Source of the DNA: Mobula hypostoma
Taxonomy: Eukaryota
Reading direction: 5' to 3'
Length of the DNA: 64,000 bases
Assembly: GCF_963921235.1 (NCBI RefSeq)
Contig: NC_086108.1
Coordinates: 38,876,001-38,940,000, forward strand
Positions within the stretch are counted from its first letter, which is position 1. Every line of letters begins with the position of its first letter. Positions 4,203-49,116 of the stretch are shown piece after piece. Made by a program: the position numbers and the translations under genes. The notes beneath the pieces were generated by a model. The model had not been told where the DNA came from, did not search any database, and worked only from the letters and a program-made list of their open reading frames with translations.

Positions 4203-7200
4203 TTTTCTGAGATAAGGAGCCCAAGACTGCTCACAATACTTCAACTGATGCTTCATCAGTGCCTTTATAAACCATCATCATTACATCTTTGCTGTTAAAT
4301 TCTGGTCCTCTTGAAATGAATACTGACATTGCATTTGCCTTTCTCATCAACGACTAAGCCTGCAGATTAACCTTCAGAAAATCCTGCACAAGGTCTCCCA
4401 AGTCCCTTTGCTCCTCGAATTTTTGAATTTTCTCTCTACCAAAGTGCATGACCATACACTTACTGACACTATATTCCATCTGCCACTTTTTGCCTGTTCT
4501 CTCGATCTGTCTAAGACCTTATGCAGTCTCCCTGCTCCTTCAACATTACCTGCCCCTCCATCTGTCTTCGATTCATTCACAAACTTGGCCGCCAAGCCAT
4601 CAATTCCATAATCCAAATCATCGACATACAACATAAAAAGAAGCGGATCTTAACACCAGCCCATGCTGAACACTGCTAGTTACTGGCAGCCAGTCAGAAA
4701 AAGCTCCCTTTATTACCACTTTGCCTGTGCCAATCTGCCAATGGTCTGTCCATGCTAGTATTTTTCCTTTAATAACATGGGTTCTTAACTTGCTAAGCAG
4801 CCTCACTTGCTAAGTGTGGCTCCTTGTTAAAGGCTTTCTGAAAATCCAAGTACCAAGCATCCATTGACTCTCCTTTGTCTATCCTGCTTGTTATTTCCTC
4901 AAAGAATTCCAACAGACTTGTCAGGCAAGATTTTCCCTCAAGGAAACCATGCTGACTTTGGCCTTTATTATCATGTCCTTAATAATTGACTGCAACATCA
5001 TCCCAACCACTGAGGTCAGGCTAATTGGTCTACAATTTCCTTTCTTCTGCCTCCATCCCGCTTGAAGAGTAGAGTGACATGCAATTTTCCAGTCCTTTGC
5101 AACCATGCCAGAATCTATTGGTTCTTACTGATGCCTCCACAATCTTTTCAGATACCTCTTTCAGAACCCTCAGATGTAGTCCATCTGGTCCAGGTAACTC
5201 ATCTACCTCCAGACTATTCAGCTTCCCAAGCACATCCTCCCTAATAATAGCAATTGCATTCACTTCTATCTCCTGACACTCTTGAAACTTTGGCATACTG
5301 ATTGTGTCTTCCACTGTGAAGGCTGTTACAAAATATTTATTCAGTTTGTCCACCATTTCTTGTCTCCCATTACTAGCATTTCAGTGTTAATTTCCAGCAA
5401 TCCTATATCTACTCTTGCTTCATTATTACTCTCCACTAACTTCCCACTTATTTTTTGCCCCATTATATGCCCTCTCTTTTGCTTTTATGTTGGCTTTGAC
5501 TTCCCTTGTCAGTCATGGTTGTGTCATCTTCCCTTAGAATACTACTTCTTTGGAGTGTAACTATCCTGCTCCTTCCAACTTGCTCCCAGAAACTCCAGCC
5601 ATTCCTACTGGTCTCCCCTTCCAAACAACTTTGGCTCACTCCTCTCTCATGCCTCTGTAATTCCCCTTACTCCACTGTAACACTGAAACATTTGACTTTA
5701 GCTTCTTCCTCTCAAATGGCAAAGTGAATTCTATTATATTATGATCACTGCCTCCTAAGCGTTCCTTTACTTTAAGCTCCCTGATCAAATCTCAGTTGCT
5801 AACACAACACTCAATCTAGAAGAGCTGATCCTCTAGCGGGCTCAACCACAAGCTGTTCTAAAAAGGCATTCTACAGGTTCTCTCTCTTGGAATCCAGCAC
5901 CAGCCTGATTTTCTCAATTTACCTACATTTTGAAATCCCCCATGACTATTGTAACATTGTCCTTTTGACATGCCTTTTCTATCTCCCATTGTAATTTGTA
6001 GCCCACAACCTGGCTAATGTTTGGAGGCCTGTATATAGTTCCTGTCAGGGTCTTTTTACCCCTGTATTTTCTTAACTCTACCCATGAAGATTCTACATCA
6101 TCCCATTTCACCCATGTCGCCTATCTCTAAGGATTTGATTTCATTTTTTACCACAGAGTCGTGCCACCCCCTCTGCCTACTGTCTGTCCCTTTGATACAA
6201 TGTGTATCCTTGGATGTTAATCTCCCAGCCATAATCTTCTTTCAGCCATGATTCAGTGATGCCCACAGCGTCATACATACCAATCTGTAACTGTGCGACA
6301 AGTTTGTCTACCTTGTTTTGTAATCTGTGTGCATTCAAGTATAATCCCTTCAGTCCTGTATTCATCATCTTTTTCTGTTTGGTCCCCATTTTATGTTGCA
6401 ACTCATCCCGCTCACTGCAATTTTGCCCTATCATCAGCCTCTCCCTGCTTGGAGTCTCACTAAAGATTGCCTTTGTAAACCAACTATGTCATCGTTAGCA
6501 CTATCACTCCAGTTCCCATCTCCCTGCTAAATTAATTTAAACTCTCTCCAACAGATCTAGCAAACCTGCCTGCAAGGATATTGGTCACCGTTGGGTTCAG
6601 GTGTAACCTGTCTTTTGTACAGCTCATAGCTTCCTCAGAAGAGATGCCAATAATCCAGAAAACTGAAGCCTTGCCCCCTGCACCAGTTTCTCAGCCACGC
6701 ATTCACCTGCCAAATCATCCTATTCTTATCCTCACTGGCATGTTGCACAGGCAGCAATTCAGAGATTACTACCCTCGAGGTCCTGTTTTTCGGCTTTCAA
6801 CTTAGGTCCCAAAATTTTCTCTTCAGGACCTCCTCCCTTTTCCTACCCACAGTATGTCATTAGTGCCAGTACATTATGTACCAAAAGAGACTGCCTGCTC
6901 ACCCTCCCTCTTTAGAGTGCTGGGGACCCTGGCACCTGGGAGGCAACATACTATCTAGGTGTCTCTATCGCATCCACAGAATCTCGTGTCTACTCCTCTT
7001 ACTATGAAATCCCTTATCACTGCCACACTCCTCTTCTCCCACTTCCCTTCTGAGCCACAGAGCCAGACTCAGTGCTGGAGACCTAGACGCTGCTGCTCTC
7101 CCCGGTAGGTAGTTTCCCCATACCCCGTGACAGTATCCAAAATGGTACATGCATTATTGAGGGGAACGGCCACAGTGATACTATCCATTTCTTTCCCCTT

Positions 7201-7245
7201 TCCTGACAGTCACCCAGGTACCTGCCTCCTGCAACTTAGGGATTG
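4203..7245 (-). mobile_element. Degenerate CR1 LINE (ORF1 end, APE endonuclease, RT)
   Basis: Minus-strand fragments LYLNAHRLQNKVDKL..GITESWL, IYRPPN..IVMGDF, GNCRPISLTSVVG and KFVNESK; many frameshifts. Confidence 0.88.
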
Positions 7246-8136
7246 TACTCTTTCTCTGCAGGGTACTCTGTGAAGTGCAGCATACAGGAGTGGCTGTCTT
7301 TTTAGGACTACAGACTGACAGTGAATAACCCGTATCAATATTTATTCTTGACCCAATATCATTAAAATAGAATATTTGGTCATGATCATATTGTTAGAGA
7401 ATTGGTGAGTACAAGTAGCTCTGTTCCCTGATGATAATACTTTGGCAGTCAGGAAGGTATCAATTAAACAAAACTTCATTCTGAAGGTACTGTTGCCTAG
7501 AAACTTATTCAACCTCCCTTCTGAAGGACAGTAGTGTAGCATTCCCACATTGCTGAACTGAGGTGACGAGGTAGATTATGTGCTCAGATCTCTGTAAAGG
7601 AAATGGAATTCACAATCCTTGGATTTAGGGAGATGTATTGCTGGAACCTAATTACTCTGATATAGCATTATAAAATATGGCACAGTCTTGCTTTGCCAAA
7701 ATTTAATCAAATTATCACAAAGTATTTGCTATTTTATTCCTGATTTTATAAAGGTCAGAAATTGTATAGAAAAATGAGGCAATTTCTTTAATTGATGAAA
7801 GTCAAAGTTCAACTTGTTTCCATCTGTAATATAGGTCTTCAGGGACAGAATAATATTTAGCATTTGTCGCATTTCACAAAATTTTTTTTTTGTGTTGTAT
7901 TTCTACACTTGTTAAACTGCTTACTTAGGAGATAAGATTAAGAAAGTACACAAAAGAATTAATAGTTCACAATTTTTTTCCAGTCATGTTGCTATCATCT
8001 AAGTTTAAGTGAAAACATCAGGTCTGGTACAAATATAAATACATGAATCCAATGTAAATGGCTCAAAACTCTTATCACAGATGCACAGCATAATAAAAGT
8101 AACAATAACACGACTGACAAAATCTATTACATCACT

Positions 8137-8460
8137 TAATCAGATTATAGTAATAAATAGTCTTTAGGATAAAATGCCCTGCTAGAAAAGCAACATTTTG
8201 AACTAAATCCTGCAATGCATTTCTTCCACAGTTAAAATCCAATATTTCTTTATATTCTTTTCACAGACACCAGTTATAGTTGTGGGAGTAGCATAAGTGG
8301 GTCACAGAGACTTAGACCATTGGATAAGCAAGGAATTGACTGATTCCTGGGCTTAGCCTTGTTGATCTGTCTTTCAGAGCATTGAGCACTGAGCTGAGTC
8401 AGCGGACACAGCAGACAAAGGAACAATGTGCAGAGTTAGGATGTAAGTTAATCATAAGAA
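8137..8460 (+). promoter_or_regulatory. Candidate photoreceptor promoter for CRB1-B
   Basis: TAATCAGATTA paired-homeodomain palindrome at 8137-8147; GGCTTAG (CTAAGCC on -) at 8350-8356; GCTGAGTCAGC MARE core at 8393-8403; TAATCA near 8449. All lie just upstream of the candidate first exon in repeat-poor DNA. Confidence 0.6.
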
Positions 8461-8520
8461 ATGAAGTACAAACAGCAGAGGTTGAGCTGACACAAGACTA
8501 AAGGTTTTTGACGATTTTTC

Positions 8521-8596
8521 ATGTCTTTAAAGAATTGTCTTGGAGAAATGGTATTACCCGTTCTTAAGGCTTCCATCTTCATGTTGGCTGTTGCAG
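8521..8596 (+). CDS. CRB1: Candidate internal first coding exon (exon 5c-like) of the CRB1-B isoform, signal-peptide-like leader
   Basis: ATG 8521 or Kozak gaaATGG at 8548 reads MSLKNCLGE-MVLPVLKASIFMLAVA-G. Ends at a strong phase-1 donor GCAG|gtaaat, in frame with exon 6 (G-SHCE). Confidence 0.75.
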
Positions 8597-10182
8597 GTAA
8601 ATATTTCTCAAAAATATTCTTTTGCAAGAGCATAAGAGTGAGTGTTACTTAAATACTCATGAGAAAAAGCAGTAGATGATAGCAACTTATATAGACAGTG
8701 ACTATTTAAATGCTTCTTTCTAAATGAGCTTCTGCAGAGTTCATTGTAGTTATTATACAGCAATATAGTGTGGTGAAGGATCAGGGCATCACTTATACTG
8801 GATAAAAAATCTTTAAACATTAGTTGGTGTTGCAAAGATCCAGGGGAACCTTAATATATTTTATTAGTATTGTTCATGTTTTGAAGAGTGTAACTAGCTT
8901 AACGAGTTTTTCAAATATAATTTATTGGAATTACTTCATGGTTTTACTGAACTGGAAATGATTTGCTTGAATTTGACTGCTTTTTTCTCAAAAGAGGGAT
9001 GTTAATCTGCAATTCCACTATCAAGAGTCACCGAGATTTTTGTGTTCAATATCTTAACCAAAAATAGATTAATCTTCATAATCCACAGGAAGCTGTCACC
9101 TCAATATAGAGCTGATATAACAATTAACTACTTACGAGGTTACTTCTAATCATCCATATTTATTTAACTTATTTCTATTTGCTCATTTTGTATATTGATT
9201 AATGGAACAACTTATAATCAGTAACAGTGTTGTAATTTACAGAAAAGTGTAACAACTATTTTGGCTCTCCTACCAACGTGTATAATGTAATGTAATTGCA
9301 TTTAGCGTGTGTCATTCACTGTTGAGACAGAATTCCTGAATGGTTAAAATAATTACACAGTCTAGCAGTTGGCTAATGGGCAGCTCAAATGTCAACTGGT
9401 GGGTAAAGAACCTAGAGATGACGTGAGGAGAAACTGTCATAGACAAAGAATCAATTTAGAATCCATTTAAAAGAGTGCTGGAAATTTTCAGCAGTTCACA
9501 CAGCTTCTATATACAGAGAAGTAGAATTCATGGTTACAGCATTTTCTGTTTTTGCTTCAGATTCCTAGCAACTGCAGGTGTTTGATTTTCATTTGGAATG
9601 CAATGCTTGAGAATGTAGGGAACAAATTCATGAGGCAATATGATAAACAGAAAGAGGAGAGAAACACAGGAATATAGGAAGGAGGCGTTTTATAGCATGG
9701 GGCTAGATTGGAATGGAACTAACTCGATTGCTCTTTGAAATTGGTGCCACAGACTCATTGGTCCAAATGATCTGAGTACAACTGGTTTATCACATACATC
9801 ATTGATAATCGTTACAGCAGTAATTTAGAATTAGTGATATGTTAGGATTTAAAATTTCCCATCCATTCTACTTTTAACCATGTGGGCTTCTCACCTCCCA
9901 AAGGTGTGCAAGTTGATAGGTTGATAGGCCTCTGTGCTTTACACCAACTGTATTGCTGAGTGGTTGGATCTGTGAGAATTAAACGGGTGTATGGGTAAAA
10001 CAAAAGGGATTAGGACTGATTCTGTAGTGTATAACTATATCATAGCCCAGTCAAAATGGTGACAAAAGGAATTTATGATGGTGACTGATAAGTTCAATAA
10101 ACTTCAGATTTATGCAATATGTACAAAAGTTTTAATGTATTATCTATTAGCAGAGCAAAAATATATTTTCTTCCTTTTCAAG

Positions 10183-11142
10183 GTTCACATTGTGAAATGG
10201 ACATCAACGAGTGTGACTTAAGCCCTTGTCAAAATGGAGGAACATGCCAGAATACCCTAGAGGGTTATATTTGTCACTGTCCAACAGGAAGTGAACAAGA
10301 GATATTTTATGGAGGCCAGAACTGTACAGACATTCTAACTGGATGCGAGAACCATGAATGCCAGAACAAAGCAACATGCATTCCTTATCTGAGGGACTCA
10401 CAACACGGGTACCATTGTCGCTGTGCTAATGGCTATGCTGGCTTGAACTGTCAATTATCAACTACATTTTCCTTTGCAGCCAATGGACATCTTCATTTTA
10501 AAACATCACTTACGGGGAGAAATGAGAACTCGACGAATAAACTTCCTTATCGTGTATTCCTAAGGTGTAGAACTGTGTTGTCCAATGCACTTATTTTTTA
10601 TAGAGGAACCAGAAAAACATTTATGAAATTGGAAGTACTCAATGGCCACTTATATGCATCTCTGCAAATAAGCAATCAACCGGTCGCAGGTCTTGAGATT
10701 TTTAAGAACATAAGTGATGGAGAATGGCACACTGTGGAAGTGACGTTCAGCAGAAACTTTTCTGTCAAACTTTTGGACAACGCCTGTTTGGAAGAATGCA
10801 TGATCCTGAAGTTTGTAGGAATGGAGAGTGAGGAATTTGCCAGAGTATTTGAAAACATATTCTTTGGGGGCATAGAGGACAGCTATGGAGGATTTTCAGC
10901 AGCCCCCCGGCCCCAGACCTGGCCTCATTTTATCGGTTGCCTTCAGGACGTGACAGTGGAATCAAAAGTAATAGACGTGGGCGTCCTTACAGTTGACTCA
11001 GCACTGAATGTGAAGCCAGGGTGCAGCAAGAGCGGTTGGTGTCAGAGCAATCCGTGCCAGGGCAAGGGTCAATGTATCGATTTGTTGATCAATTACACAT
11101 GTGAATGTTTCAGACCATACATTGGTTGGAACTGTTCTGAAG
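10183..11142 (+). CDS. CRB1: CRB1 exon 6 equivalent: EGF x2, laminin-G 1, EGF
   Basis: ttttcaag|GT ... GAAG|gtaaat, 960 bp, phase 1-1. SHCEMDINECDLSPCQNGGTC...SDGEWHTVEV...FIGCLQDV...CFRPYIGWNCSE. Confidence 0.97.
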
Positions 11143-11264
11143 GTAAATGGTACAATAATATTTCAAGGTTTTAAGTGAATACTCCACCTTTTCTTAGATA
11201 TAATGCTCACTATCCGTTTACATGTTCCTAATAATTTAGTTTCCCAATTCAGTAATAAAGGAAC

Positions 11265-13300
11265 ATAAGATGGAGAAGCCCAGAACTTTGCTCCACCACT
11301 GACTAAGGTCACTGGTGATCAGATCTTGGCCTCAATCCTTTTTTCTGGATGGTTTGCCATAAGCCTTAATTTCCCAATATTTCAAAACCTGGCTGTCCTA
11401 AGTTAATTATACTGCATTTAGTGATTTCAATTGGACAGCTTTCTCAGGTAGAACATTCCAAACATTACCAACCTCCTGAGAAGAAATTTGTTCTCATTTC
11501 TGACTTAAGTTGTTCTAATATTGTTGATTTGTTCTTAAATTGTGCCTTCAATTAGCGTCGTACAGCACAGAAACAGGCCCTCTGGCCTTACTGGTCCATT
11601 TTAACCAAGGTGCCCATCCAAGCTAATTGCTTGGCCAGAATTTAGTCATAATCTTCTAAACATTTAATATCCATGTAACTATCCAAATGTCTTTCCTCAG
11701 CCACTTGCTCTAGCAGTTCATTCCACATACATACTGTTCTCTGTGTAAATAAGAAAGTTGCCTCTCAACTTCCTATTAGATATTACCCCTCTCACCTTTA
11801 ATCTATGCCCTGTACTTCTTGATTTCCCCACCCCTATTAAAATGACCGAGTACATCCACCCTACCTATACCCCCATGAATAAATAAGATCACCTCTCAGT
11901 CTCTTATGCTTCAAGGCAAAAGTCCGAGCCTGTCCATCCTCACCCTATTACAAAATCCCTTGAATCCTGGCAACATCTTTGTAAATATTTTTCTGCACTC
12001 TTCAATCACTAAATTCCCACACAAAGAGGACCAAGCTTAGTGTAACTCTATCAAATGCACCCAGAACTATGAGTGTGTTAGTTCATTCTTATTCTTCTAA
12101 TCTCAAATGGGTACTTACTACCTGTACTTTCCTCATCCTCATCAGACCTAGATTTTCTACTGTTAATAGGATGCATCTATTTTTCTTCTCTGAATGTAGA
12201 AACAGAGTATTTGTTCAAAAATGTCTTGATATTTTATTATTTTCTATTGTTGTGCTTCAATCTCACCATCAAAGGTAAACCCATTCACTCTATCCATTCT
12301 CTTCCATTTTACATGCTCGAAGAAGATTAATATTTTTTATTGGTTCTTACTCACTTGCATCCATAATCTACCTTCCATCTCTTTAGTAACTTTATAGTCA
12401 CTAATGTTCAGTAACTTTATCAGTTTCCACATTTTTCCCAATACATTGATTAGTAATAGTATTACATGCGTTTTCTTTAATTTGATAACGTCCCTACCTT
12501 CTGTTATTAGCCATGGTTGGATTATCCTTATTGTAGTCTTCATAATGGATAATATCATTGTGAAATATACTTAATGCACTGCTTTACTACTGTTTTATCA
12601 TTAAATCTATTTTGCCAGATTAGTCTACCCTACGTTCGTGCCTTTACAATTATCCTTGTTTAAATTTAAGACTCTAGCATCATTCTCCAATTTCTTGCTC
12701 TCAGATCATGAAATTCTATTATGTTATGACCACCATTTCCCAGAAACCTATTCTATGTTGGTTCTACAGCATATTGTTTGAATAAATGGCCTCAAATACA
12801 CTCTACTTGTTCATCCTCCAGGCTACCTTTTTCCATTTGACTTGACCAGTTTACAGGGGGAAGTTAAAGTTACTCAAGTACTTTTACAAGCCTATATTCA
12901 CAAAAACCCATGCTGACTTCCTCCAGTGACTTCTTTTCCTTAATATTTTCCGTCTCCACCCAAATAAGTCCTACATCTTGATCTTCTGTACCATGATCAT
13001 TTATAAACAGCTATTCCATTTATACCTCTCTGTTTTGAAGGTGAAGTACCCAGATATTGTATTCCCAGCCTTGGTCACATTACAGTCATCTCTTTGTAAT
13101 ATCGTTTAAATCCTGTTCATTTGTCATTAATACATTTACCATATTGTAAAGGCAGGGTGCATTCAGCTAAATAAACTTTAATTTTGTCTTTCCACCAGTT
13201 TTCCTGAACCTGATGTTATTATCAGATGCAATTTATTGTTCTATATCCTGTCCTTTCCTGATGTTCAGTACTCCTATTGCTACTCCGTACAATTGGATTG
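11265..13300 (-). mobile_element. Old, highly decayed CR1 fragments
   Basis: CR1-like 3' UTR motifs (acagcacagaaacaggccc; cccctctcaccttta) and decayed endonuclease-region sequence. Confidence 0.55.
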
Positions 13301-14971: not shown

Positions 14972-15522
14972 AATTAATCCCTGGTGGATTTGGCTATGAA
15001 GATTCCAAAAGCTATGCTTTGTTTGTCATTGATAATGATCCAGGAGAAGAAGTGAACATATCCATGTTTGTTCGCTCTCACCAACCAGATGGTGCGTTAT
15101 TGATCCTGAGGAACAGTAGTGTTCTCTATCTACAGATGAAGTTGGAAGCTGGCCACGTGGTAGTCCGACCTCACTTGTCCAAACCTCTCACAAGTGATCA
15201 CTACATCACGGACAGTAAATTTTATTTAATAACTGTGGAAATAAAACAAAACAAAATGAAACTTGTTCAGATGGGACAAGTGGTAGGTCATGTACAAATT
15301 CCTCCGATTAGAATTCGAACTGGTGATGTAGTTTATATCGGAGGCTTGCCAGATCAGCTGGAACATGCTCAAGACACAAGACACTTTGAAGGATGCATCC
15401 AGGATGTAAAGATCAACAACAAGAGACTTGAATTTTATCCCATTAGTATCCCCAAGGAGACTTACAGTAACAGAATACTTGTCAATATAACAAGAGGCTG
15501 TAATGGCAACAGCACATGTAAG
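14972..15522 (+). CDS. CRB1: CRB1 exon 7 equivalent: laminin-G 2
   Basis: caacag|AA ... TGTAAG|gtacag, 551 bp, phase 1-0. LIPGGFGYEDS...ISMFVRS...GDVVYIGGLPD...FEGCIQDVKIN...GCNGNSTCK. Confidence 0.97.
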
Positions 15523-16623: not shown

Positions 16624-16789
16624 TTCAGCCCTTGCTTGAATGGTGGAACCTGCTCTTCCATCAAGGATGACTTTGTCTGCAACTGTCCTTCGAATACCTC
16701 AGGAAAAACCTGCAACCAAGTCCAGTGGTGCCAGCTCAGTCCTTGTCCGCAGGGTTCAAAATGTCACCTGATCAGAGATGGATCTGATT
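16624..16789 (+). CDS. CRB1: CRB1 exon 8 equivalent: EGF
   Basis: cctag|TTC ... GATT|gtgagt, 166 bp, phase 0-1. [42 protein letters not shown]. Confidence 0.96.
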
Positions 16790-19295: not shown

Positions 19296-20692
19296 TGTAA
19301 CTCTTGGTTCGACTAGCAGCTTAATCTAGGGGTTGATAGCCCTTGACCTGGCCGAACTTAAGAAATCTCGTTTGGGTGGATGCTGCGATGTGTACCTTGT
19401 TACAAAACAGTACCACGAAATAACAAACAGTACACAATATGCGATTAAACGATTGAGCTTTATAATTCTTAATTTGACTATATGGTTAGTGAAGAAACAA
19501 AAAAAAGAAAAGGGCCCATTCTCATGAAACAGTCTTATGCGCAATGTTGGAGATCATGGTTCAGTCCGCTGGTTTCCCGTGGACCTCCTCCGAGCATAGC
19601 CGGCCCTTGGACCCTCACTCTAAGTCCACTCTGTCTGGTGGTTTACCAACTCTCTCCATTTGGGTCTTCTGTCCTTATCGCTCCCCAACAAAAGACTGTG
19701 AAATCCCTTTTCCCAGACCCACAAGAAAGAACAACATCCCTCTCATTGGGTAGCTCCACATTTCAAAGCTCCATTATCTCTAGTCGTAACCCAAACATTG
19801 CTGCTACAGAGAAACTATTACCTTTGCAGTGAAACCTCACAGCACATTATACTCTCCATTCCGCCTCCCCCCAACCAAATTTAGTCATGTCTTCATGACG
19901 TTGAGATAGTTCGCCAACTCCTCCTGCAAAACACAAAGTCCAATCCAGGAGTAGAAGGCAGTGACATAGCTCCCCAACACGGTAAGAGTCACAATCTGTT
20001 CCCCTGGTGTTACGTAGGCCAGCCTATCCAGTAGTCTGCTAATTCACTAAGACCTCCGTACCCCCTCACCTAACTCTTCAGGTTCAGTCAGAACTGGGGA
20101 TACTTCCGGTCTACCTGGAAAGGCCTCCCCCCACCCATCACTCGTGCCTACCTGCAATTCAGGTCCCTCAGTCCTGTGGCCAAGCCCCACTTCATCCCTT
20201 GCAGGGTCCCGCTGCAATCCAGGCTGTCCACAGATAGCTCCACCCCACTTCACCTGACAGCGGGAGAAGGGCTGGAAGTCTCTTCCTCAATCAATGGAGA
20301 GTTAACAGGTATCCAGGTCTTCATCCTCTGAATCAGTATCCCCCTCAGGGGTGGGGGCCGGTCTAACCTCGCCTGCTGTGGGCCCTGCAATCGCCCCGCA
20401 TTTCCGACAGGTCCTCTTACTAGGTGTAGTCTCCAAGTCAGGCTCTGGGTCTACCTGCACCTCTTGACCCAGGGGCAGCAGGTGGTTCCGATAGAGAATC
20501 TTGACAGGCCCATTCCCATCCTCTGGTTTCACCTGGAAAACCGGTAGGCTTGGCATTTCACTCTCCACCACATAGGGCTTAGCTGCCCAACAGTCTGCCA
20601 ACTTATTTTTCCCAGGTAGCCCGAATTCCTTATGAGGACCTGGTCTCTTGACAGGAGTTGAGAGAACCTCAGCTTTTGATCATATCTCCTCC

Positions 20693-20765
20693 AATTTCGG
20701 CATGGATTAGAAGGGCCAAGATGGTCTGTTTCTGTGCTGTAATTGTTATATGGTTATATGGTTAT
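20693..20765 (+). mobile_element. Short CR1 3'-end insertion within the Gypsy B integrase
   Basis: ggcatggattagaagggccaagatggtctgtttctgtgctgtaa followed by a (ttatatgg)n tail. Confidence 0.65.
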
Positions 20766-21963
20766 TTCCTTGATTCTGCTTGGCAACCATGATCCTGGCT
20801 AATTCATAAGCCCTTTTCAGCTTTCTTCTCATGTTAGACACATACTTCAGATAAGTCTTTGGTGGTAAGTCGCCCTCGTCAGTCCCAAAACAAAGATCAA
20901 TGGACAACCTCACCTCACGCCCAAACATCAGATAGTATGGCGAGTACCCAGTAGCTTGTAACTGTGGACCAGATGTCCAATATGTTGACTCCACCTGCTC
21001 TTCTTGCTGATCTCCAACGTCTTGAGCACGTCTAGCAATTAAACCTCTCGGGCTGGGGAGCACCCTGCGGATGATAGGGCATGGTCCTCGACTTCTCAAC
21101 TCCAAGCATGCCCGGTCACTCCTGGATGAGTCTGCTCTCGAAATCCCATCCCTAATCACTATATATCCACCTGGGAAGGCCATGATAAATGAAATATTTC
21201 TCCCAAAACATTTTGGCCACCATGGACTCCCTCTGGACTTTGGTAGGAAAAGCGTATGCATATCTCGTGTAGTGGTCCGTGATGACTAAGACAATTGCCG
21301 CATTGCTGGCATCAGGTTCTATTGACAGGAAATCCATACACATCAGGTCCAGGGGCCCTGCACTCTGCAAGTGGGACAAATGAGCTGCCCACGCAGGCAG
21401 TGTCTTCCACCGTGTGCATCGAATGCACGATTTGAAGTATTTTTCGACCTCTGACTTCATTCGGGGCCAGTAAAACCGGTCTCCGAGCAATCCATAGGTC
21501 TTTTCCACCCCAAAATGTCCAGAATCATCATGAAGTGACTTCAACTCCATCCTCCGATACTTCTCCTGCAGAACCAGCTGACAACGCCGAGGTCGGTCCG
21601 GGCGTGACGTGACCCGATATAAGATCTGGTTCCGCAACTCCATCCGAGGCCATTCTCTCAGTAATGGAGGCACCACTGTGTGTTTCGTCTTCCCTGCCTG
21701 AGCTATGTCTCCCTTTTTGACCGCTGACCAAATGATACCGTTGCCTGGGTTGTTTTGCTGAGCAGCTGCCACTTCCCCAGAACTCAATTCCGGCGGCTGA
21801 TTTGTCTTCAGAGCTGTCATGTTACACTAAACGTGGAGAATGGCATCATCGGAAGCTCCCATCTGCCTTCATGGTGATGGCAAACTGACACAGGGCCTCC
21901 ACCCCCGGGGCAGGAACGCTGTCTCACTCCTCGTCCCTGACCAGTCCCTCATGCACCCGTCAG

Positions 21964-22963
21964 TGTCATCAGGTGGTGGCTGGGAACAGACCCAACTGCA
22001 AGACACAGACACAAGTACTAGGGACAGGTCTAGGATACAGGGTGAGGGCTAGGACATGGACACGAAAACTGGGAACCTGGAACAGGACTGGACAAGAGAG
22101 CTAGGAGCCTGGGCTTGGACTCCAAGCCAGAGACTGGACAAGGACCCAGAACCTGGGTCTTGCCTCTGGCTCGGACCCCAGAACTAGGCAAGTACGTGAC
22201 TTGGCTGGCAGGCAGGATGAGGCTGGAGTCTTCAGACTTGAGGCAAGGCTGGAGACCAGAGGCTTGAGGCGAGGCTGGAGACCAGAGGCTTGAGGCTTGG
22301 GGTCTTGAACCTTGACTTGGGGCGAGGCTCGAGGCTTGGGGGTCTTGAAGCTGGGCTGGGGCGAGGCTTGAGACCAGAGGCTTGGGGTCTTGAAGCTCCT
22401 CCTGGGCAGGGTGCAGATCTCCACCCGACGGAGGCAAGGGACGGGAAGGGACAGAAGCAACCATAGGGTAACGGCAAGACAGCCTGGCTTACCCGACAGA
22501 GGCAAGGGACAGGAAGGGAGCTAAGTACAGGGTGGCTCCAAGACAAGACTTCAGGTGAGACGAAGTGAGAGTTACCAGCAAGACAAGGCAAGACTTCAGG
22601 CAATGCAAGGTGAGACAAGAACTTCAGGCGAGGCGAGAGTTACCGGCAAGACAAGGCAAGGCTTCAGGCAATGCAAGGTGAGACAAGAACTTCAGGCTAG
22701 GTGAGAGTTACCGGCAAGACAAGGCAAGGCTTCAGGCGAGGAAACAGAAGGCAGGGACAGGGATACGAGGAGTAAGGACAAGAACAATCCAGCAGCCACA
22801 CCCTGGTCTCTGGAGGTATTTATGCAGCCAGCCCCAACGAGCATCAGCTGCCTCAATTAGTGCTCAACAGGAACAGAAACAGGGTAGACAGGAAAACCTG
22901 GAGCAGGGGTCGATGGACTGGACCATGAACCGGAATGCGGACTTCACGGACTGGACCATGACA
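21964..22963. mobile_element. Solo LTR of a third family, inserted in Gypsy B pol
   Basis: TGTCAT...ATGACA termini, perfect 5-bp TSD GTCAG, 1000 bp, internal tandem repeats (gagaccagaggcttgaggc; caagacaaggcaaggcttcaggc). Confidence 0.88.
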
Positions 22964-24112
22964 GTCAGGACAAAGCATCAGCATCAATGTTCCTGCTTCC
23001 CGGCCGGTACTTCAGGCTGAAATCATAGGCAGACAATGCCACCAACCATCGATGGCCTGTGGCATCCAGTTTCGCTGAGATCAGGATATGTTAGGGTGTT
23101 GTTGTCCATTCTCACCTCAAACTTGGCCCTGAAGAGCTAGGCACTCAGCTTATCCGCCACCACCCATTTCAATGGAAGAAATTCCAACTTGTGCGTGGGA
23201 TAGTTTTTCTCGGAGGGCGACAGACTCCGGTTGACAAACACAACAGGTCTCAACCTGATGCCCTGATCCTGATACAGGACACCCCCCAAGCCCTCTTAGC
23301 TGGCATCCATGTGCAGTACATACGGTAATCGGGGGTCCGCAAAAGCCAGCACTTGGTGCCTGGATCAGCATCTCCTTCAGCGACTGAAAGACCTCTTCAC
23401 ATCTTGCATCCCAACTCGGTCCAAAGGGCTCCAACGGCTAAAATACTCTCCACCCTCCTGTCCTTTTTATCCCCCTCCCTTTCTTCCCCAATGGAGGTTA
23501 ACTGCACAGAAGCTGATTCATCGGGTGACTCATTTTTGTGTAGCCTTTCATGAATCTCTGCTAGTAACCACAGAAGCCGAGGAACAAGTGCAGAGTGCTC
23601 ACAGTCTGGGGTCTTGGCCAAGTGGTCACAACCTCTGTCCTAGCTGGACCTCTAGCTACTCCATCCCGTGAGACCATGTGCCCAACATAGCTAACAGATA
23701 TTTGGCAGAACTGGCACTTGTCCAGGGAAAATTTTAACCTTTCAGCTTTCAGGTGGTCCAGCACCTTCAGCAGCCTCACTTCACGTTCTTCCAAGGTGGA
23801 TCCAAACACTAGGAGGTCATCTGGATACACCAATACCTCAAGCAAGTTCATATCCCCCACCATCTTCTCCGAGACCCGCTGGAAGGTTGCAGGAGCTCCC
23901 GAGATGCCCTGGGGCATCCTTTCAAACTGGAAAAATCCCAGAGGGCATATAAATGCCATTTTCTCTTTGTTGGCCTCACTCATGGGGATCTGGTAATATC
24001 CACTCCTCATCCAGCACACTGAACCACTTCGCACCACTCATACAGGCCAGCTCATCTTCGATCCTCAGGACAGTATACTGGTCAGGGACGGTGCGCCTGT
24101 TCAGAGTCCTAT

Positions 24113-24114
<2 letters not shown>

Positions 24115-24161
<47 letters not shown>
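24115..24161. repeat. (CA)n microsatellite inside the Gypsy B RT
   Basis: About 23 uninterrupted CA units. Confidence 0.98.
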
Positions 24162-24163
<2 letters not shown>

Positions 24164-27010
24164 CTCTACCTTCCCATTCTTCTTTCAGGCCACTACCATT
24201 GGGAACACATAGGGGCTTCGGGATTCGGTGATGATCCCAGCTTCCTTCAACTTACACAAGTTTTGCCAAGCGTCTTCCACCTCTACAGGGACCAGTCTCT
24301 GTGACCGCTCTCTAAATGGGGTGTCCTCGGTCACCCGGATAGTGTGACAAGTGCTCATGGAACAACCCACATCAAACTCTTCAGTGGAAAAGACACCTTC
24401 CAGCTTCAACATCTTCTCTACCAGCCTCCTCTTCCAAACCACAGGAACCAGGGAGTCCCCGAAGTTGAATGACTCAGCGGTCAACTTTCCCCCTTTTTCC
24501 AATAGTTTCTCCCCAGTTTGCCTCACAGGGACACTAGACATTACCGTCACTGGGAACAGATGCACCAGGGGCATCCCCCGCTTGAAGGTGACCTCCCTCT
24601 TCGTAGTGTTCCTGATAATCACTGCCATCCTGTGTTCCTGTACAACCGAGGGCAATTCTGCAATTCTGGCCTCACCAGTACCCCAGCAGGAAATCCCGAC
24701 TCCCCCTCGTGGTCGTCCAGAGCATGCACTAAGAGGGCTTTGCCCTCAGGCACTCTGGAAATTTGGGGGTCCCCATCACTCTCGCTATTTCCCCGGGGCG
24801 TACCACCATCGGCTTTGTCTGGGTGAACCACACAGTCCTTCGTCTAAATTCAGTATCTGGCCTGATGCAGCCACACACTTCCTCAAAAGCCGCTCAAAAC
24901 ACTGGGTGCACGGACAATGTTCCCAGAAAGCTCTCGCCGGCCTTCTCCCTGCAGGCCCCCATAAGCCTCCTCACAAGAGGGGTGTTGGTTCCACCAGAAT
25001 TGAAACACTGCCCATCTCAACAGGGTCCGGACAAACCAGCACCAACTGTATCAAGAACCTCAGACACTCCCACACCGGCCTCCGAGAACTCCAGTTTCAC
25101 TGACAAATAACCGTCCGATCGATAATCACCAGCACTGAGACCCCAAATCTCCAGTGCATTGAATGGTGTCAATGGTAAATGCTTCAGATACCGGTTGTAA
25201 AACGAACAGTACAACAACATGACCTGCGACCCAGTGTTGAGTATGGCTTTAGCATAAGTACTCTCTATCCGTAGCGACACACTGGAGCATGGTCCCACTA
25301 AACCTTCAGGAATTGGGCCTTTCGCTTTCAGGGATTCCTTTGTACATTGCTGGGAACATGTTCCCCCAGTGACACCAGGCCGTTCCCTCATTGGGTCTCC
25401 TCTAAGTTTTCCCAACAACTCTCCCTGCTTAGGTACCCGGGGGCTCACTCTCCTTCTAGTGTGACACCTGCCAACAGCCCCTCCACATTGTTCGTCCCCT
25501 TGAGGAATCTGTTCCCCCATCAGCTCCATCAAATGGGGGTGTCACACCTGCTGATAACAGCTGACATATCTCCGTTCTCAGCTCTGGACAATCTCCTCTA
25601 CCACTCCCCGGGGTAGGCTATCTGTGGTTACTTCAGGGGACTGCTATGGAGGACTGTACCCTGCTTTTGGAGCTCCTAGCTACGTGATCCATTCTTAACT
25701 GATCCACTTTAGCTGCCTGAATGACCCCTCTGCGCTACAAGCAATTTAGCTGCCTCTCTAGCTGAAAAATGTAAGCAGAAAGCATCTCCCCTTCTCCTGA
25801 CGCATGTTCTGAAACCCCACCATAAGCTCCAGTGGGCTTCCTATTGGGCAAAAAGCATTGTCCAGTGCTTGCATGTAATTGACAGCTGTTGCTACGGATA
25901 CCGCAACCTGACAGCTCTCACAACGTCAGCAGCCCACCCACTCAAACTCTCAACCAATCGCTGTCGCTTTACGCCATTAGAGCATTGCCACTCATCTAAC
26001 AACTGAGAGGTCCGCTCCGCCCAAGTCTCATGCTCCTCCTCCCCTCTAGAGGTGGGTGTTATTCCAGAGAATAGGCAGAGCCTGCCATAGCTGGGACTTC
26101 GAACCTGGGCATTTTCCCATTTATTCGCCAGAGAGGTAAGAGCGAATACTAACTCAGAATTCTCACTCTTCACTGGGGGACGTGGACTAATTAGATATTC
26201 TAAATCCGACCACTCCTTCCCCTCACTCCTCAGAAAATATAAAACCCTGTCATTGAAATCTCCACCCCCTCCCAGCTACATCTACGTCAAAGCTGGTCTG
26301 CATTAAAATGAGAGCTGCGCCCGCCACTTCATTAAACTTCCACCCCGCAATTGCAACTTTAATAGTACTTAACAGGCAAATTAACAATTCATTCCACTGG
26401 TTCAATGCTCAGGGTGATCACACAGCATCCAATGAAATCAATCCCGGACAAGCCCCCTCAATTGTAACTCTTGGTTCGGCTAGCGGCTTAATCTAGGGGA
26501 AGACAGCCCTTGGCCCGGCCAAACTTAAGAAATCTTGTTTGGGTGGATGCTGCGATGTGTACCCTGTTACAAATCAGTACCCCGAAATAACAAACAGTAC
26601 ACGATATTCGATTAAATGATTGAATTTATATAATTCTTAACTTGACTAGTAAGGAAATAAAAAAAAAGAAAAGGGCCCATTCTCATGAAACAGTTTTATG
26701 CGCAATGTTGGAGCTCACGGTTCAGCCCGTTGGTTTCCCCTCGACCTCCTCCAAGCGTAGCTGACCCTCGGACCCTCGCTCCAAGTCCTCTCCGTCCGGT
26801 GGTCTACCAACGCTCTCTCTTTGCGTCTCCTCTCCTCATCTCTCCCCAGCAAAAGACTGAAATCCCTTCTCCCAGACCCACAAGAAACAGCAACATCCCT
26901 CTTATTGGATAGCCCTACATTCCAAAGCCCTGTTATCCCTAGACATAACCCAAACATTGCTGCTACAGGGAAACCATTACCTTAGCAGTGAAACCTCACA
27001 GCACATTACA

Positions 27011-27290
27011 CTTGCAAATTTCTTCAAACTCCTTGAACTCTCTTCCAGCTTAAAACCAAGCCACATTTCGCAAGTAACTGCCTGGTGAATACATCAGTTT
27101 TCTCAGATATGTTGCCTGCCAAAATTATTGCAGTCAGGCCACTGCTTTCATCACTTCCACATTTCTACTGAGAAGTATGGTCCTTCCTTGATCCAATATG
27201 CTTTCCAACCAGAGGCACCACGGTTGGCACCAACTCTTGCTTACCCTCTGTTGGGCAATGGTTCATGGTGTACAGCATGGAGACAGTTTT
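27011..27290 (-). pseudogene. RBM25: RBM25 processed fragment, 5' part
   Basis: LVPTVVPLVGKHIGSRKDH..*...GNISEKTDVFTRQLLAKCGLVLSWKRVQGV*RNLQ joins the 3' part exactly once the Gypsy element and one CTTG TSD copy are removed. The 5' junction is uncertain between about 27235 and 27290. Confidence 0.88.
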
Positions 27291-27859
27291 GCATCATCCA
27301 ACACCTTTCCTAATTCATTTTTAGTTGACTTCACTGTAGGGAGTGTGACATGTAACTGGTGGATGGATCTCCAGTTAAGTTGTAGCTGTCTCAGCCAATC
27401 ATGTCCCCACAATGCTTGTCCTCCCATTTTTACCACATACAGGCTCAGTGTGGCATGTTGGTTGTCGTATTTCACTGACACGAATGCTGTTCCCACAGGA
27501 GTTATCTTTTCTCCAGTATAACTTCTTTGTTCAAAGGTATCTTGTGGAATGACTGTAACAGCTGACCAAGTATCCAATTCAATTTTAATTAAATTGCTGT
27601 TCACTTCTAGTGTAAGCCATATTGCTTGTCTATTTTTAAATTTCACATTATAAATCTCAAGGCTAGTCGGTCCTATGTCACTCTCATCATTATCAGATGT
27701 TTCATCAACAGCATGCAGATTAGTGCTCCTTTTGAAACTGTAACTCGACATTTTAGCTTTTTCTCTTCCCTGAGCAGTCTATTTATTTTTGTCTGCCCGG
27801 CACGCTCTTTGTATGTGTCCTATTTTGTTTAATTTCTTGCTAGTTTCATCGTTCGATCT

Positions 27860-30800
27860 CTGATGATCTATTCTGGTCCCAACATATTGATGCAGCTATA
27901 AAGAGTTTGAAGAGATTTGTCATCTGAAAAACTCTAAAATTCCTACAGATGTATCGTGAAGAGGATTCTGACAGGCAGCATCACTCTCTGTTATGGTGGG
28001 GGGGTGACTGCACAGGACCGAATTAAGCTACAGAAAACTCTAAAATTACTCAGCTCCATCTTGAGCACTAGCCTCCATAGTATGGAAGACATCGTCAAGG
28101 AGTGGTTCCTCAGAAAGTCGACGACCATCATTAAGGACCCCCATCACCCAGGACATGCCCTCTTCTCATTGTTACCATCCGGAAGGAGGTACAGAAGCCT
28201 GAAGGCACACACTCAGCGATTCAGGAACAGCTTCTTCCCCTCTGCCATCTGATTCCTGAATGGACATTGAACCTATGAACACCACCTCACTTTTTAAAAT
28301 ATATATTATTTCTGTTTTTGCACTATTTCTAATCTATTTAATATACAGAGTGTTAAAAATACACTTGGACTAAGATGTTAACTGTCCTGTGCTATCACCA
28401 GTGGGATCATCAGTTGATTTGCCACCTGTCTTCAGGAGTTTCGGCCCGCTTATGATCAAGACTCCCTCGAGGTGGTGGGCCAGCAGTGCTAAAGCACCAC
28501 CTCCCACTGGTGAGCTTAAAAACTTGGCATCTGCCTCTGTCAGTCACTTCCATCCAACAGAAAGTCTGCTCTTTAGGTGTCTATGCAACTACTGAAGGGT
28601 TTGCAAAAGATATACACACTGTCTGACTATCTGCCCCTCTGGACATACTTGGTCCATACCCATGCTGGTCCTTTCTCTGCTGCCTCAGCTACAGCCCTGC
28701 TGGTTGACTTGATCTCTCTTCTAGTGAAGCCAAGGTCATGCAGCCACTTCTGGAGAGTGAATACAATAAACCCACGGCAGCCTGCTTCGAATGGATAACA
28801 TGAGACCTTCCACCCTCTGTCTCTGCACTCTGATCTTAATTCTGCATACTTGGTTAACTTGCGCTCACGGGCTTCATCGATGTTGTCTTCCCAGGAGACT
28901 GTGAGTTCACCAATAACCACTTCTCTACTGGTGTCAGACCATACGATTATATCTGGACGCAATGTGGTGAAAGCTATTTGCTTCGGGAAACTGCCTTTCC
29001 CATCCAGGTCGGCCTTGACACACCAATCATTGGCTAAACAAAGTATGCTTGATCGTGATCCTGTGCTGTACACCCTTGACTTGGAGCCTTCTTTCACAAA
29101 TGATATGCAATGTTCTGTGCAACATGGGGCATGAGATAAGTTGTGCTGCAGTACTCTCTGCTCAGCCGCTTCTGTTACAACTTTGAGAACATTGTTATGT
29201 CTCCAAGTGTACATGCCGCTGGAAAGATTGACTCTGCATGCACTCAAGATATGTTGAAGTGTTCCCTTCTCGCCACAAGCAGCACACCTGTCTGTCTTAT
29301 CTTCATACCAGGTGCTGAGGTTGGTAGGTGTTGGGAGCAGGTCGTACACTGCTCTGCATAGAAAAGAGATGCGGAGTGGTTCCATCTGCCACAGAACATT
29401 CCAAGATAGATGTCATTGTTCAACACTTTCCCACCAGGTCCAAGCCCCTTGTTTGGCCAGGCCAGCTGTTTTAGTTAACCTCTTCTCCTCTTCTACCTCT
29501 CGTATTTCTTGTGTTACAAGCTCACGGCGCTCCTTACCTGTAGAAGATGACCACCACTTGTGGGTTGTCCACCCAAGTCCCTGGCGGCCTCACTGGATAG
29601 CCCCAACTGTCTCCTTGTGGTTCAATCTAGACTCTGCCTCATCAACTGCTACATGGGCTGACCACTTCCTGCCTGATCTCACATCCGGCTGGGTGTTCTT
29701 GATGACAGGGTCTTTTGAGTCTTGAAGCATCAAGAATGATTTTACCTTGGCTACCTTGACCTCCTCAACAAGGGATTGCACTGGGATGGTAAGCTTTGTC
29801 TGGCTACTGTGGATTGCAACATTGGTGAGGCTGCTTGGTACTCCAAGCCACTTCTTCACATACTTGTTGATCTTCCATTCCATTGCCTTAACATGGGACA
29901 TTGCCACTTTATAGACAGTTCGTGGCCACATTATCCATGGCATCAGTCCGTATTGCAAGCACCACAACTTCAACTTGCCAGGCAAGCCACACTTGTCAAC
30001 AGACATCAGACCTCTGCTGATCTGTTCTCCTGTCTCTTGAACCCTCTTGGTGTCTCTCAGCTCCTCTGTGTACCATCGCCCGAGGCTCTTAACTGGTTGG
30101 TCCTGAATAGATGGAATCTCCTCTCCACAAAGGATGAAATGAAAGTCAACCAGCTTTCCTCTCCTAAGAACAAGGCTCCTTGACTTCTTGGTCTTGAACT
30201 TCATTCTTCCCCAATCCATTAGCTCCTCGAGTCTAGATACTATAGTACATTTTCCACTGCCTCCGTGCTGCGACCCAAAAGGGTGAGATCGTCCATGAAC
30301 ACTTGTATTGGTGGTAACTCCCCTCCGCCATCAAGTGCGACACCTGGTCCCACTGATTCTGCAGCCCTCACAATGACCTACGTGGCTAACACAAAAAGGA
30401 TGGGTGAAATCGCACATCCCATTGGGATTCCAACATAAAAGCTCTGCCACCTAGTTGTAAACTGCTGAGTGGAAAACCTCATCCAGAAATCATTGTAGTA
30501 ATACATAACAAAGTTCCTCACCTTAGCAGGAATCCATAGGAATTCCATCGCAAACTCAATCAGGACATGGGGAACAGAACCATACGCATTTGCCAGATCA
30601 AGCCAAACTACAGCCAGATTTCTTCTCAACCTTTTTGACTCCTGGATGGTATGCCATATCATACTAGAATGTTCAAGGCATCCTGGGAAGCCTGGTATTC
30701 CTGCCTTCTGCACAGATGTATTTACTAATCCATTCTCTATCACAAATAAAGATATTCTTTCTGCCAGAATGCCAAACATAATCTTCCCCTCTACATTCAG

Positions 30801-32108
30801 GATTAAAATTGGTCGGAACTGATTCAATGTAGAAGAATTCTCTTCCTTCGAGATGTATACTCCTTCAGCCTCACTCCATGACAAAGGAACAACACCTTGT
30901 CTCCACACCACTTTTAGCAATTTCCACAAGTATTTCCTCAGCTCTTCACACTTCTTGAACACCTTATGCGGCACTCCATTTGGTCCTGGCACTGAGCCTG
31001 ACCTTGCCTTTCTGATTAACCGTTCGACTTCTGTCAATTTGGGTTCTGACAGATCGAACTTCACTCCTGGCTTGGTAGGCTTCACAGGCCCTGAAATATC
31101 AAGCAAAGGAGCCTCCCGCTGTTCGTTAGAGTAAGTGCTTGCCAGGTGATCCTCAAGTTCTTGTTGAGAGATGTTAATCTGCCCGCTCTTACTTTGTTCA
31201 AACTGTTTCTCTGTGAACTCATGAGGGTTCTTAAAGAACGACTTTCTTGCCTTCTCTCTCTTCTTTCTCTTTATGTTGTGACTCTGCATGATGGAGTGAT
31301 GCTAACTTTATTTGAAAATGCTCTCGGAGATCAGCAAGCCCTGGCTTGTCACCCTCACTTGCGACCTTCCACCTCTGTCTCAATGATCTAAGCTGTCTCC
31401 TCAACCTAACAATCTCCTTCTGGCGCCTGCTTGGTTGCTGTGTAGGCTTTGCTTTCTTCAATTCAACCAAACCAAACCTGTACTTTCCAACATCGTAAGT
31501 CATATCGCCCATCACTTCCAACTTTCTCTTTGATGTTCTCCTGAGAGTGTTCTCCAACATCATACTGATATCCTCATAAAAAACATGCCAAGCCTTCTCA
31601 TCTGCCATTGTTGGCCACTTGACCTTCCTCTTCTTCTCTACCTCCTCACCACCACCATCATGCGAAGGATCTACCTGGGTGCTGTGGTCTGAAACCTGAC
31701 CTGGGTTATCTTTCTTCTGACCTGGAATATGATGACTCTCTCCAGAGCGAATCGCTGTGGCTTGTGAATCAGTGGTTGAAAAGACCACATCATCTGTGCT
31801 TGGTGAAGTAACCTCATCTTCATCCACTGGGATGGAATAGCACCTCAACTTTGCTTGGTGGACTCGTACACCTTTAATGCTGGAAAACGCTCTCCCACAC
31901 CAACACACTGGACACTCAGAGCCTCTTATTCTAGCTCTTGGTTGTAGTCGTTCCCTGTAATTAACTGTATCCATATATACATGTACTGTAATTGAACCAT
32001 TTATTTATTTCATTTCTTCCTTTATTATCAGGTATTGCATTTTCCTGCTGCCGCTAAATTAACAAATTTCATGACACATGCCAGTGATAATAAACCTGAT
32101 TCCGATTC
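27860..32108 (+). mobile_element. L2/Rex1-type LINE 3' fragment (27860-28347 plus 31975-32108) split by a HERO-like element
   Basis: IIKDPHHPGHALFSLLPSGRRYRSLKAHTQRFRNSFFPSAI*. The 3' UTR resumes after 31975 and ends taaacctgattccgattc. Confidence 0.8.
28348..31974 (-). mobile_element. R2-group (HERO-like) non-LTR retrotransposon: ZnF, RT, CCHC, restriction-like endonuclease; frameshifted
   Basis: CWCGRAF..VHQAKLRC; VVWLDLANAYGSVPH; GIPMGCAISPILF; FMDDLT; CAAC..HILSAC..WRHN; RPDIIVW..IGELTV..RKLTKY. Probable TSD atataca at 28341-28347 and 31975-31981. Confidence 0.9.
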
Positions 32109-42231: not shown

Positions 42232-43132
42232 GCCTTATTAGTGCTACGTTTAAAGGAGAGGAAAGACTAACTTTCAGAGGGAATGGCAACATTAAGCAAC
42301 AGCTCACCAATGTTACCTTCAGCCTCCAGACAAGGGAACCGAACGCAGTTGTGCTCCACGCTGTAAAGGAACAAGATTTTATCACAGTTGGCACCCAGCA
42401 GGGCCATTTAATATTTATGATACGAAGTGGAAACAGTTGGGGCAATCTGAGTATCTGCAGCTCAAATCCGATAAGCGACGGTCTCTGGCACGATGTTACT
42501 TTTCGCATGAGTGATCCCTTGCTTCAGTATTCCAGCTGGCAGCTGGAAGTAGACAGGAAAGAAATTGTAACCAGTGCGACTGTCAGTGGGAACCTGAACT
42601 TCCTGAGAGCAGAAACGGACATTTACCTAGGTGGCGGAGATGAACGCAAAGGAGGCAGCTTCAAAGGTTGCCTGAACACACTGAAACTTGGTGGCATCTC
42701 CTTGCCGTACATTGCAATTGATAATATGCATATTATCCAACCTCAGCAAGAACAATTTATACAGACATCCTTCAAAATCATATTACTGGGCTGCCCAACA
42801 GAGAGTACTTGTGCATCAAATCCCTGCAAAAATAATGGCAAGTGTGAGCACATGGTCAGTTACTATCAATGTAGCTGCCCTCCAGGCTGGACAGGCTTGA
42901 ACTGTGAAGAGAATATCAACAATTGCCAGTCAAGTCCATGCATTCATGGCAACTGCACAGACAATGTCTCGGCGTACAAATGTGTCTGCTTACCTGGTTT
43001 CACCGGCAATAATTGTGACGTGAGCCTAGACAACTGTCAAAAGCACAGGTGTGCCAATGGAGCAACTTGCATTGACACAGTCGACAATTACTCGTGTAGT
43101 TGCCCGAGTAACTTCACTGGAAGGTTTTGTCA
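42232..43132 (+). CDS. CRB1: CRB1 exon 9 equivalent: laminin-G 3 and EGF x3
   Basis: ttgcag|GC ... TGTCA|gtaagt, 901 bp, phase 1-2. LISATFKG...LTNVTFSLQTR...SDGLWHDVTF...GNLNFLRAETDIYLG...NFTGRFCQ. Confidence 0.97.
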
Positions 43133-47520: not shown

Positions 47521-47994
47521 AGTTCAAAGTAAATTTTAAGACTGAGAGCAAATGGTAAAAAATATCCTATTCCTTCACCTAGCATCACTCGAAGTTTTTG
47601 ACAAACTAAATCAACTTAAAATTTGAAAGCAGAAATTTGATATTATTAATTTCCTAAAGAACATGAAAAATAGAAATTGGAGCAGCAGAACTGTTGTCAT
47701 GGCTGAAATTGAACAGTGCACTGGAAGGTGCACAAATAAAATCTTGCAAGTTGGAACAGAGTTCAAGCTACATTTGTCATTTTGGTATTAGGAAATTAAA
47801 TGGAAAAGCGAATAGAAGAAAACCATAAAATACAGCCTTTGCTGCTGCATGATTCTGTGATGAACTTTGCACTGTTCAAAATTGTGCTTTAACTAGAAAA
47901 CCCACTCTCTGTACAAATGGCATGATTCAACTACAGAAGTGATGCGTCCCACTTGACCCTGCCTGCAGGGAGGACTGTATCTTACCCTGGGAAG

Positions 47995-48990: not shown

Positions 48991-49116
48991 ATACCTTAGA
49001 TTATCTGTTACATTTTGCCATGATGAGAAGCATAATTGGACCTGTTACAATGGAGGCAACTGTACCGAGGAGAAATTTACAAGGTGTACCTGCCCGTTAG
49101 GATTCACTGGAAGCCT
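48991..49116 (+). CDS. CRB1: CRB1 exon 10 equivalent: EGF (too short for the ORF track)
   Basis: tcatag|A ... AGCCT|gtaagt, 126 bp, phase 2-2. [41 protein letters not shown]. Confidence 0.95.

Follow-up and report, generated by a model that had tools for sequence, protein, structure and literature searches.

A candidate first exon for CRB1-B within intron 5 of the CRB1 gene of the ray Mobula hypostoma

CRB1-B is the main retinal form of an inherited-blindness gene and is a candidate for gene therapy (bioRxiv 10.64898/2026.08.05.743134). Ray et al. (2020; PMC7335077) reported it in mouse, human, cow, rat and zebrafish and quantified the zebrafish form in their Supplementary Fig. 5A; their Fig. 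7b, an alignment of the B-specific ends across vertebrates, may cover further species. The question raised by a short stretch of DNA within intron 5 of the M. hypostoma CRB1 gene is whether it is the start of the same isoform in a ray. The initial annotation had described CRB1-B as a mammalian isoform starting in intron 5, which is correct for mammals but too narrow if restricted to them, given the zebrafish form. In the literature that was searched, most subscription journals lying outside its scope, there was no report of CRB1-B in cartilaginous fish. What is new here is an unannotated ray first exon of a known isoform, which on the evidence of its sequence is very likely functional; the gain is modest, since CRB1-B is already known from zebrafish to human.

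The window, by which we mean the whole 64 000 nt stretch of DNA analysed (positions 38876001–38940000 of NC_086108.1, in a genome of 3.48 Gb), carries CRB1 exons 5–11 on its + strand. The translation of exons 6–11 was 100% identical across 943 aa to the M. hypostoma CRB1 protein XP_062919931.1, and in a quick IQ-TREE maximum-likelihood tree of 18 rows the window protein fell within the CRB1 clade (SH-aLRT 100), apart from the six CRB2-type rows; the gene is CRB1, not CRB2. The database protein is an A-type model only, of 1410 aa with an ERLI tail, and has neither a B leader nor a B tail. The exons are as follows.

553–735, + strand: CRB1 exon 5 of the canonical A form, replaced by the B start; phase-1 donor at 735, exon 5–11 frame open
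10183–11142, + strand: exon 6, common to A and B; acceptor at 10183, joined open frame
14972–15522, + strand: exon 7; joined open frame
16624–16789, + strand: exon 8; joined open frame
42232–43132, + strand: exon 9; joined open frame
48991–49116, + strand: exon 10; joined open frame
53240–53477, + strand: exon 11 in its read-through B form (11b); donor of the A form at 53366, B tail 53367–53474, stop 53475–53477

Several other features of the gene were observed in passing. The exon 6 frame runs about 10 codons beyond its donor before a stop (11143–11174), so that retention of intron 6, if it occurs, would yield a secreted CRB1-C-like form. Introns at about 20300–27800, 28600–32000, 46100–47600 and 58000–59300 hold broken retroelement-like ORFs, which were judged from their translations, and labelled by reading these, to be LTR-type pol and gag pieces and non-LTR reverse transcriptases. 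Short interspersed repeats with many genomic copies lie at 7000–7245 and 9530–9595.

The candidate exon itself comprises the following elements.

8521–8596, + strand: candidate first exon of CRB1-B, coding part; two ATGs, a signal-peptide-like leader ending AVA-G, donor CAG|GTAAAT
8461–8490, + strand: upstream ORF of 9 codons, in frame with the leader; stop TGA at 8488–8490

Translation from the first of the two ATGs, which share a frame, gives MSLKNCLGE-MVLPVLKASIFMLAVA-G, ending at the donor CAG|GTAAAT (8596/8597). The context of ATG 8521 is weak (tttttcATGT), whereas that of ATG 8548 is a strong Kozak sequence (ggagaaATGG, with G at −3 and G at +4). The donor at 8596 is in phase 1, like that of exon 5 at 735, and is thus compatible with the exon 6 acceptor at 10183. 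When 8548–8596 was joined to exons 6–10 and the extended exon 11, the resulting frame was 2991 nt long and encoded 996 aa with a sole stop at its end; starting at 8521 instead gave 3018 nt and 1005 aa, again with a sole stop at the end. The initial annotation had named the ATGs, the hydrophobic peptide and the in-frame phase-1 donor, all of which were borne out on re-reading the sequence, and its 2991 nt and its protein lengths of 996 aa (from 8548) and 1005 aa (from 8521) were reproduced exactly on recalculation. Its statement that the product is similar in size to mammalian CRB1-B also held, mouse CRB1-B being of 1003 aa with seven exons in both species, but the interval 8521–8596 that it gave as the exon stands as the coding part only, the true start of the exon being farther upstream. 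Short ORFs begin at five ATGs upstream of 8521, and only the one at 8461–8490 shares the leader's frame.

The leader from ATG 8548 is 17 aa long and its hydrophobic core is short, at approximately 8–9 residues. Its best 9-mer hydrophobicity was 2.42, as against 2.26–2.39 in the signal peptides of A forms, and the core is weaker than in the B leaders of sturgeon or catfish. By hydropathy and the −3/−1 rule, the predicted leader is consistent with a signal peptide. A search of the peptide against 1.84 billion representatives (50% level) found no relative, the one match being of low identity and in multiple stretches, and none was found among the database proteins compared.

With a vertebrate donor matrix, the donor at 8596 scored 5.2 bits, the highest of the eight donors of the gene that were scored, the other seven lying between 1.0 and 4.7. 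The 64 kb were scanned for an ATG followed by 13–35 open codons, a hydrophobic core, small −1/−3 residues and a strong phase-1 donor; the candidate was the sole match on the + strand, the − strand gave none, and of 100 Markov-simulated versions of intron 5 three contained a match. The thresholds had been set close to the candidate's own values, so that this 3% is optimistic and the scan should be read as supportive.

Independent evidence came from comparison with the mouse. For mouse Crb1-B (PB.338.150; 1003 aa, seven exons), the cDNA 5′ end was published by Ray et al. (2020; PMC7335077) as Supplementary Data 1 and encodes the leader MFGHKTQGFHILMAVLIG ahead of exon 6. One segment of the ray intron closely resembles the coding DNA of mouse exon 5c.

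8489–8508, + strand: 20 nt with 18/20 identity to coding DNA of mouse exon 5c; reads HKTKGF, 5′ UTR in ray

This segment lies in the leader's frame and ends 88 nt upstream of the donor at 8596. When the mouse 20-mer was compared with the whole window, allowing up to three mismatches, 8489–8508 was the sole match; shuffled controls at the same threshold gave a mean of 0.06 matches, with 6 of 100 shuffles containing one. The 20-mer had been chosen after inspection, and a correction was therefore made for the approximately 291 possible 20-mers of an exon of about 310 nt (counted by eye), which gave an expectation of 6e-3 anywhere in intron 5 and of 2e-4 within 300 nt of the previously named donor. 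Comparison by eye of the whole mouse exon with the ray DNA suggested a second, gapped likeness from 8295, about 194 nt upstream of the match as compared with about 200 nt in mouse. The candidate exon is thus likely to be homologous to mouse exon 5c, as the initial annotation had proposed, the support being the 18/20 nt match in the leader's frame and its position 88 nt from the donor.

The correspondence does not extend to the leaders as proteins. In the ray, the leader frame across the match reads stop-HKTKGF-stop-RFF-M(8521), as compared with GHKTQGFHILM in mouse; HKTKGF therefore sits between two TGA stops, in the 5′ UTR, and the leaders of the two species do not correspond residue for residue. 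Aligned from the left, the internal Met of the mouse leader corresponds to ATG 8521, and aligned from the donor it corresponds to ATG 8581; both the mouse Met and ATG 8581 are followed by 13 nt to the donor, and I-x-M-x-x-x-x-G is present in both. The ATGs at 8521 and 8581 are exactly 60 nt apart, each inside a copy of the direct repeat TTCATGT (at 8518 and 8578).

Upstream of the match are three motifs of the kind that might belong to an internal promoter, all picked after inspection of the sequence.

8137–8147, no strand assigned: TAATCAGATTA, a perfect match to the dimer site TAATCNGATTA of K50 homeodomains (CRX/OTX); the sole one in 64 kb, candidate promoter element
8350–8355, − strand: TAAGCC, sequence motif
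8393–8403, no strand assigned: GCTGAGTCAGC palindrome; candidate NRL site, the sole one in 64 kb

We take TAAGCC at 8350–8355 to be a monomeric K50-type site, and the GCTGAGTCAGC palindrome is presumably the core of a Maf recognition element. The dimer site and the Maf-type palindrome are both located within 400 nt of the ATG. Counting the dimer twice, there are five K50-like sites in 7901–8501, a number reached by 3.5% of 600 nt windows, and TAATCC does not occur in 7900–8520. According to Hughes et al. (2018; PMC6169884), TAATCNGATTA is a K50 dimer and dimeric sites make stronger photoreceptor enhancers, and the number of NRL motifs was uncorrelated with activity. The densest K50-type clusters in the window (seven per 600 nt) were seen at 8650–9600, just downstream of the candidate donor, and could possibly represent an intronic photoreceptor enhancer.

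At the other end of the gene, the B tail (53367–53474) consists of a hydrophobic segment, with a best 19-mer hydropathy of 1.67, and a short acidic tail that is not of ERLI type. It is single-copy in the genome and strongly conserved, with 27/35 residues identical to human and mouse, 30–31/35 to coelacanth, lizard and bird, and 31–33/35 to the Narcine, Mustelus and Amblyraja models; across 12 vertebrate B tails, 24–34 of the 35 residues were identical. A candidate poly(A) signal follows closely.

53498–53503, + strand: AATAAA, candidate poly(A) signal; 21 nt past the B stop

According to the legend to Supplementary Fig. 6A of Ray et al. (2020; PMC7335077), 5c and 11b are used jointly in mouse. 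This joint use, together with the strong conservation of 11b, predicts a working 5c in the ray.

Database models were considered alongside the DNA. From a collection covering part of RefSeq, and all but four members of one protein cluster, 44 chondrichthyan CRB1 models were retrieved; 43 contained exon 6, and a B-leader start was present in 0 of these 43; the start of the B tail was present in 6 of the 44. Those from Narcine (P0139 and P0140) and Mustelus (P0146) combine a B-tail ending with A exons at the start. A metagenome pattern scan gave no match, and a metagenome protein scan returned six loci (five weak EGF matches and one with a match from base 24), none of which holds intron 5. A search for short B-type fragments returned only a skate exon-6 ORF starting inside the exon. 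Among sequencing runs recorded as RNA, none contained 8200–8700. Four of six runs were compared with 7400–11300: the candidate exon was covered by none of them, no splice junction was seen, and nearly all of the matching contigs derived from the short interspersed repeats; one contig of 264 nt fell inside exon 6 and may be DNA, so that these runs are uninformative on splicing. We also noted that 118-aa CRB3-like proteins (P0158, P0163 and P0287–P0289) have a C-terminus common to many shark and ray ‘CRB1’ models, and that shark and ray annotations carry two different ERLI tails, encoded past the window's end.

Three other explanations of the locus have to be weighed against a functional first exon. 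The region might be orthologous to 5c and yet be a relic, or purely regulatory as a photoreceptor enhancer, with 11b being used together with A exons or with another first exon. The mouse-matching codons are indeed broken by TGA stops in the ray, as could be seen in a decayed exon, and the chondrichthyan B-tail models of Narcine and Mustelus all begin with A exons; these models, however, are automated predictions, mouse 5c and 11b are used together, and a relic would leave unaccounted for the intact ATG in a strong Kozak context, the leader and the top-scoring donor of the right phase directly behind the conserved DNA. We consider this explanation improbable. It is also conceivable that the donor closes an internal poison cassette of 219 nt, with an acceptor at 8378 between exons 5 and 6, the inclusion of which would send CRB1-A transcripts to nonsense-mediated decay. 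There is a YAG at 8377 whose pyrimidine tract resembles that of genuine acceptors, and several stops lie in the frame that follows it, but 26 sites in intron 5 are at least its equal as acceptors, and the Kozak ATG, the leader and the match to the mouse first exon would all be left unexplained. As the principal use of the donor we regard such a cassette as very improbable, although it could exist alongside the first exon as a minor use.

The third explanation is that chance has brought together an ATG, a stretch of hydrophobic codons and a GT donor in an AT-rich intron, and it is true that the scan thresholds were tuned on the candidate and that two similar donor sites appeared on the − strand when the −1/−3 rule was dropped. 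Against coincidence stand the independent 18/20 match to mouse 5c beside the donor (expected 2e-4), a CRX dimer site that occurs only once in the window, and the conservation of the B tail, and the probability that we would give to it is very small. The uninterrupted frame, a donor of the right phase, the DNA shared with mouse 5c, the CRX- and Maf-type motifs and the conserved 11b tail together lead us to conclude that 8521/8548–8596 is, with high probability, the coding end of the first exon of an expressed ray CRB1-B orthologue.

Our working model for the production of this orthologue is that CRX/OTX, probably with NRL in rods, would drive an internal promoter in intron 5, active in both rods and cones if the mouse is a guide. 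Translation would begin mainly at 8548, the ribosomes having passed over the short ORFs farther upstream and the ATG at 8521 with its weak context, and 8596 would be spliced to 10183. The leader would act as a signal peptide, cleaved probably after AVA, while the exon 11 donor would be read through and the transcript would end at the nearby poly(A) site. The predicted product is a type I membrane protein of about 980 aa, in which EGF domains are accompanied by three laminin-G domains and the C-terminus is a short acidic tail in place of the ERLI-type Crumbs tail of the polarity complex. It would be expected to act, as in mouse, at the junctions between photoreceptors and Müller glia, i.e. the outer limiting membrane.

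The difference between the ray and mouse leaders is most simply read as a 60 nt in-frame indel: either the ray line may have gained the 60 nt by insertion, or they may have been deleted on the way to mammals while an ATG farther upstream was recruited. The 17–18-aa leaders of sturgeon and catfish, hydrophobic along their whole length, resemble the 17 aa of the ray, so that the balance leans, judged from protein models, towards the mouse state being derived. A tentative reconstruction, to which we attach rather less than even weight, is that translation of the ancestral leader started at the downstream ATG, a state shared by the ray and probably by ray-finned fish, and that in the mammalian line a 60 nt deletion between the TTCATGT repeats removed most of the leader, the upstream ATG then recruiting the former 5′ UTR (HKTxGF) as signal peptide. 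If this reconstruction is correct, the 20 nt element, retained over about 450 million years in coding and non-coding states alike, would be a hidden regulatory element within human CRB1 exon 5c and a place to seek unexplained CRB1 disease alleles.

Taken with the zebrafish and mammalian data, the ray exon makes it likely that CRB1-B dates to the jawed-vertebrate ancestor. The initial annotation had drawn the same conclusion, which we would uphold at that strength from the DNA match and the zebrafish and mammalian data; as zebrafish CRB1-B was already known, the advance is of one node, from bony to jawed vertebrates. If so, the division into an A form in glia and a B form in photoreceptors would be as old as jawed vertebrates, and the presence of both unique B ends in cartilaginous fish would mean that shark and ray gene models can be corrected. 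This study also names candidate promoter motifs, and the DNA match flags a conserved element of exon 5c that is coding in mouse and non-coding in the ray.

How does the ray arrangement compare with systems already described? Among ray-finned fish, the sturgeon model MGH0155199.1 and catfish models (e.g. XP_017326717.2) have, as predicted in the ray, a hydrophobic leader of 17–18 aa directly before exon 6; the catfish models, like the ray, end in the B tail, whereas MGH0155199.1 ends in an A tail. The B leaders of ray-finned fish gave no significant alignment with that of the ray, and most catfish models are without the lone cysteine at the start of exon 6. When the leaders were aligned with MAFFT, that of the ray was misplaced, and the alignment was set aside. 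A side observation concerns the catfish CRB1 entries P0011, P0013, P0014, P0236–P0245, P0251 and P0252, in which the full-length ones listed are of about 1000 aa and B-type, with a short leader, exon 6 onward and the B tail; no A-type model was among those listed (three clusters), and catfish may have kept CRB1-B only.

The zebrafish paralogue offers a parallel, in that crb2b-sf is a short form with an internal start in intron 7 (PMC7044448), and so is likewise a shorter, later-expressed eye isoform arising from an internal start in a Crumbs gene, although the paralogue differs. One CRB2-like locus was found in the M. hypostoma genome, on C67, of which 50 kb were examined. The 24 kb intron equivalent to CRB1 intron 5 contained no comparable leader, no CRX dimer and no DNA likeness, and a looser donor cut-off yielded one poor candidate, with a charged C-terminal half. 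This examination revealed no internal start common to CRB1 and CRB2, there being no matching leader exon before the exon-6 equivalent of CRB2 in this genome.

The closest counterpart is the CRB1-B of mouse and human, the human protein being of 1003 aa (PMC8657784) and the first exon being termed 5a rather than 5c in a further report (bioRxiv 10.64898/2026.08.05.743134). CRB1-B is expressed in mouse and human, whereas the ray form is predicted from DNA. The ray differs from mouse in that most of its leader is encoded by 60 additional in-frame nt lying between the two TTCATGT repeats, and its B tail ends one residue past the conserved W (EWA), as compared with six more in mammals and birds. In the remaining respects the arrangement is the same: a first exon within intron 5 with a phase-1 splice to exon 6, predicted in the case of the ray, a short leader ending in G, the same chain of exons and a nearly equal length, with the lone cysteine from the split EGF domain kept at the start of exon 6.
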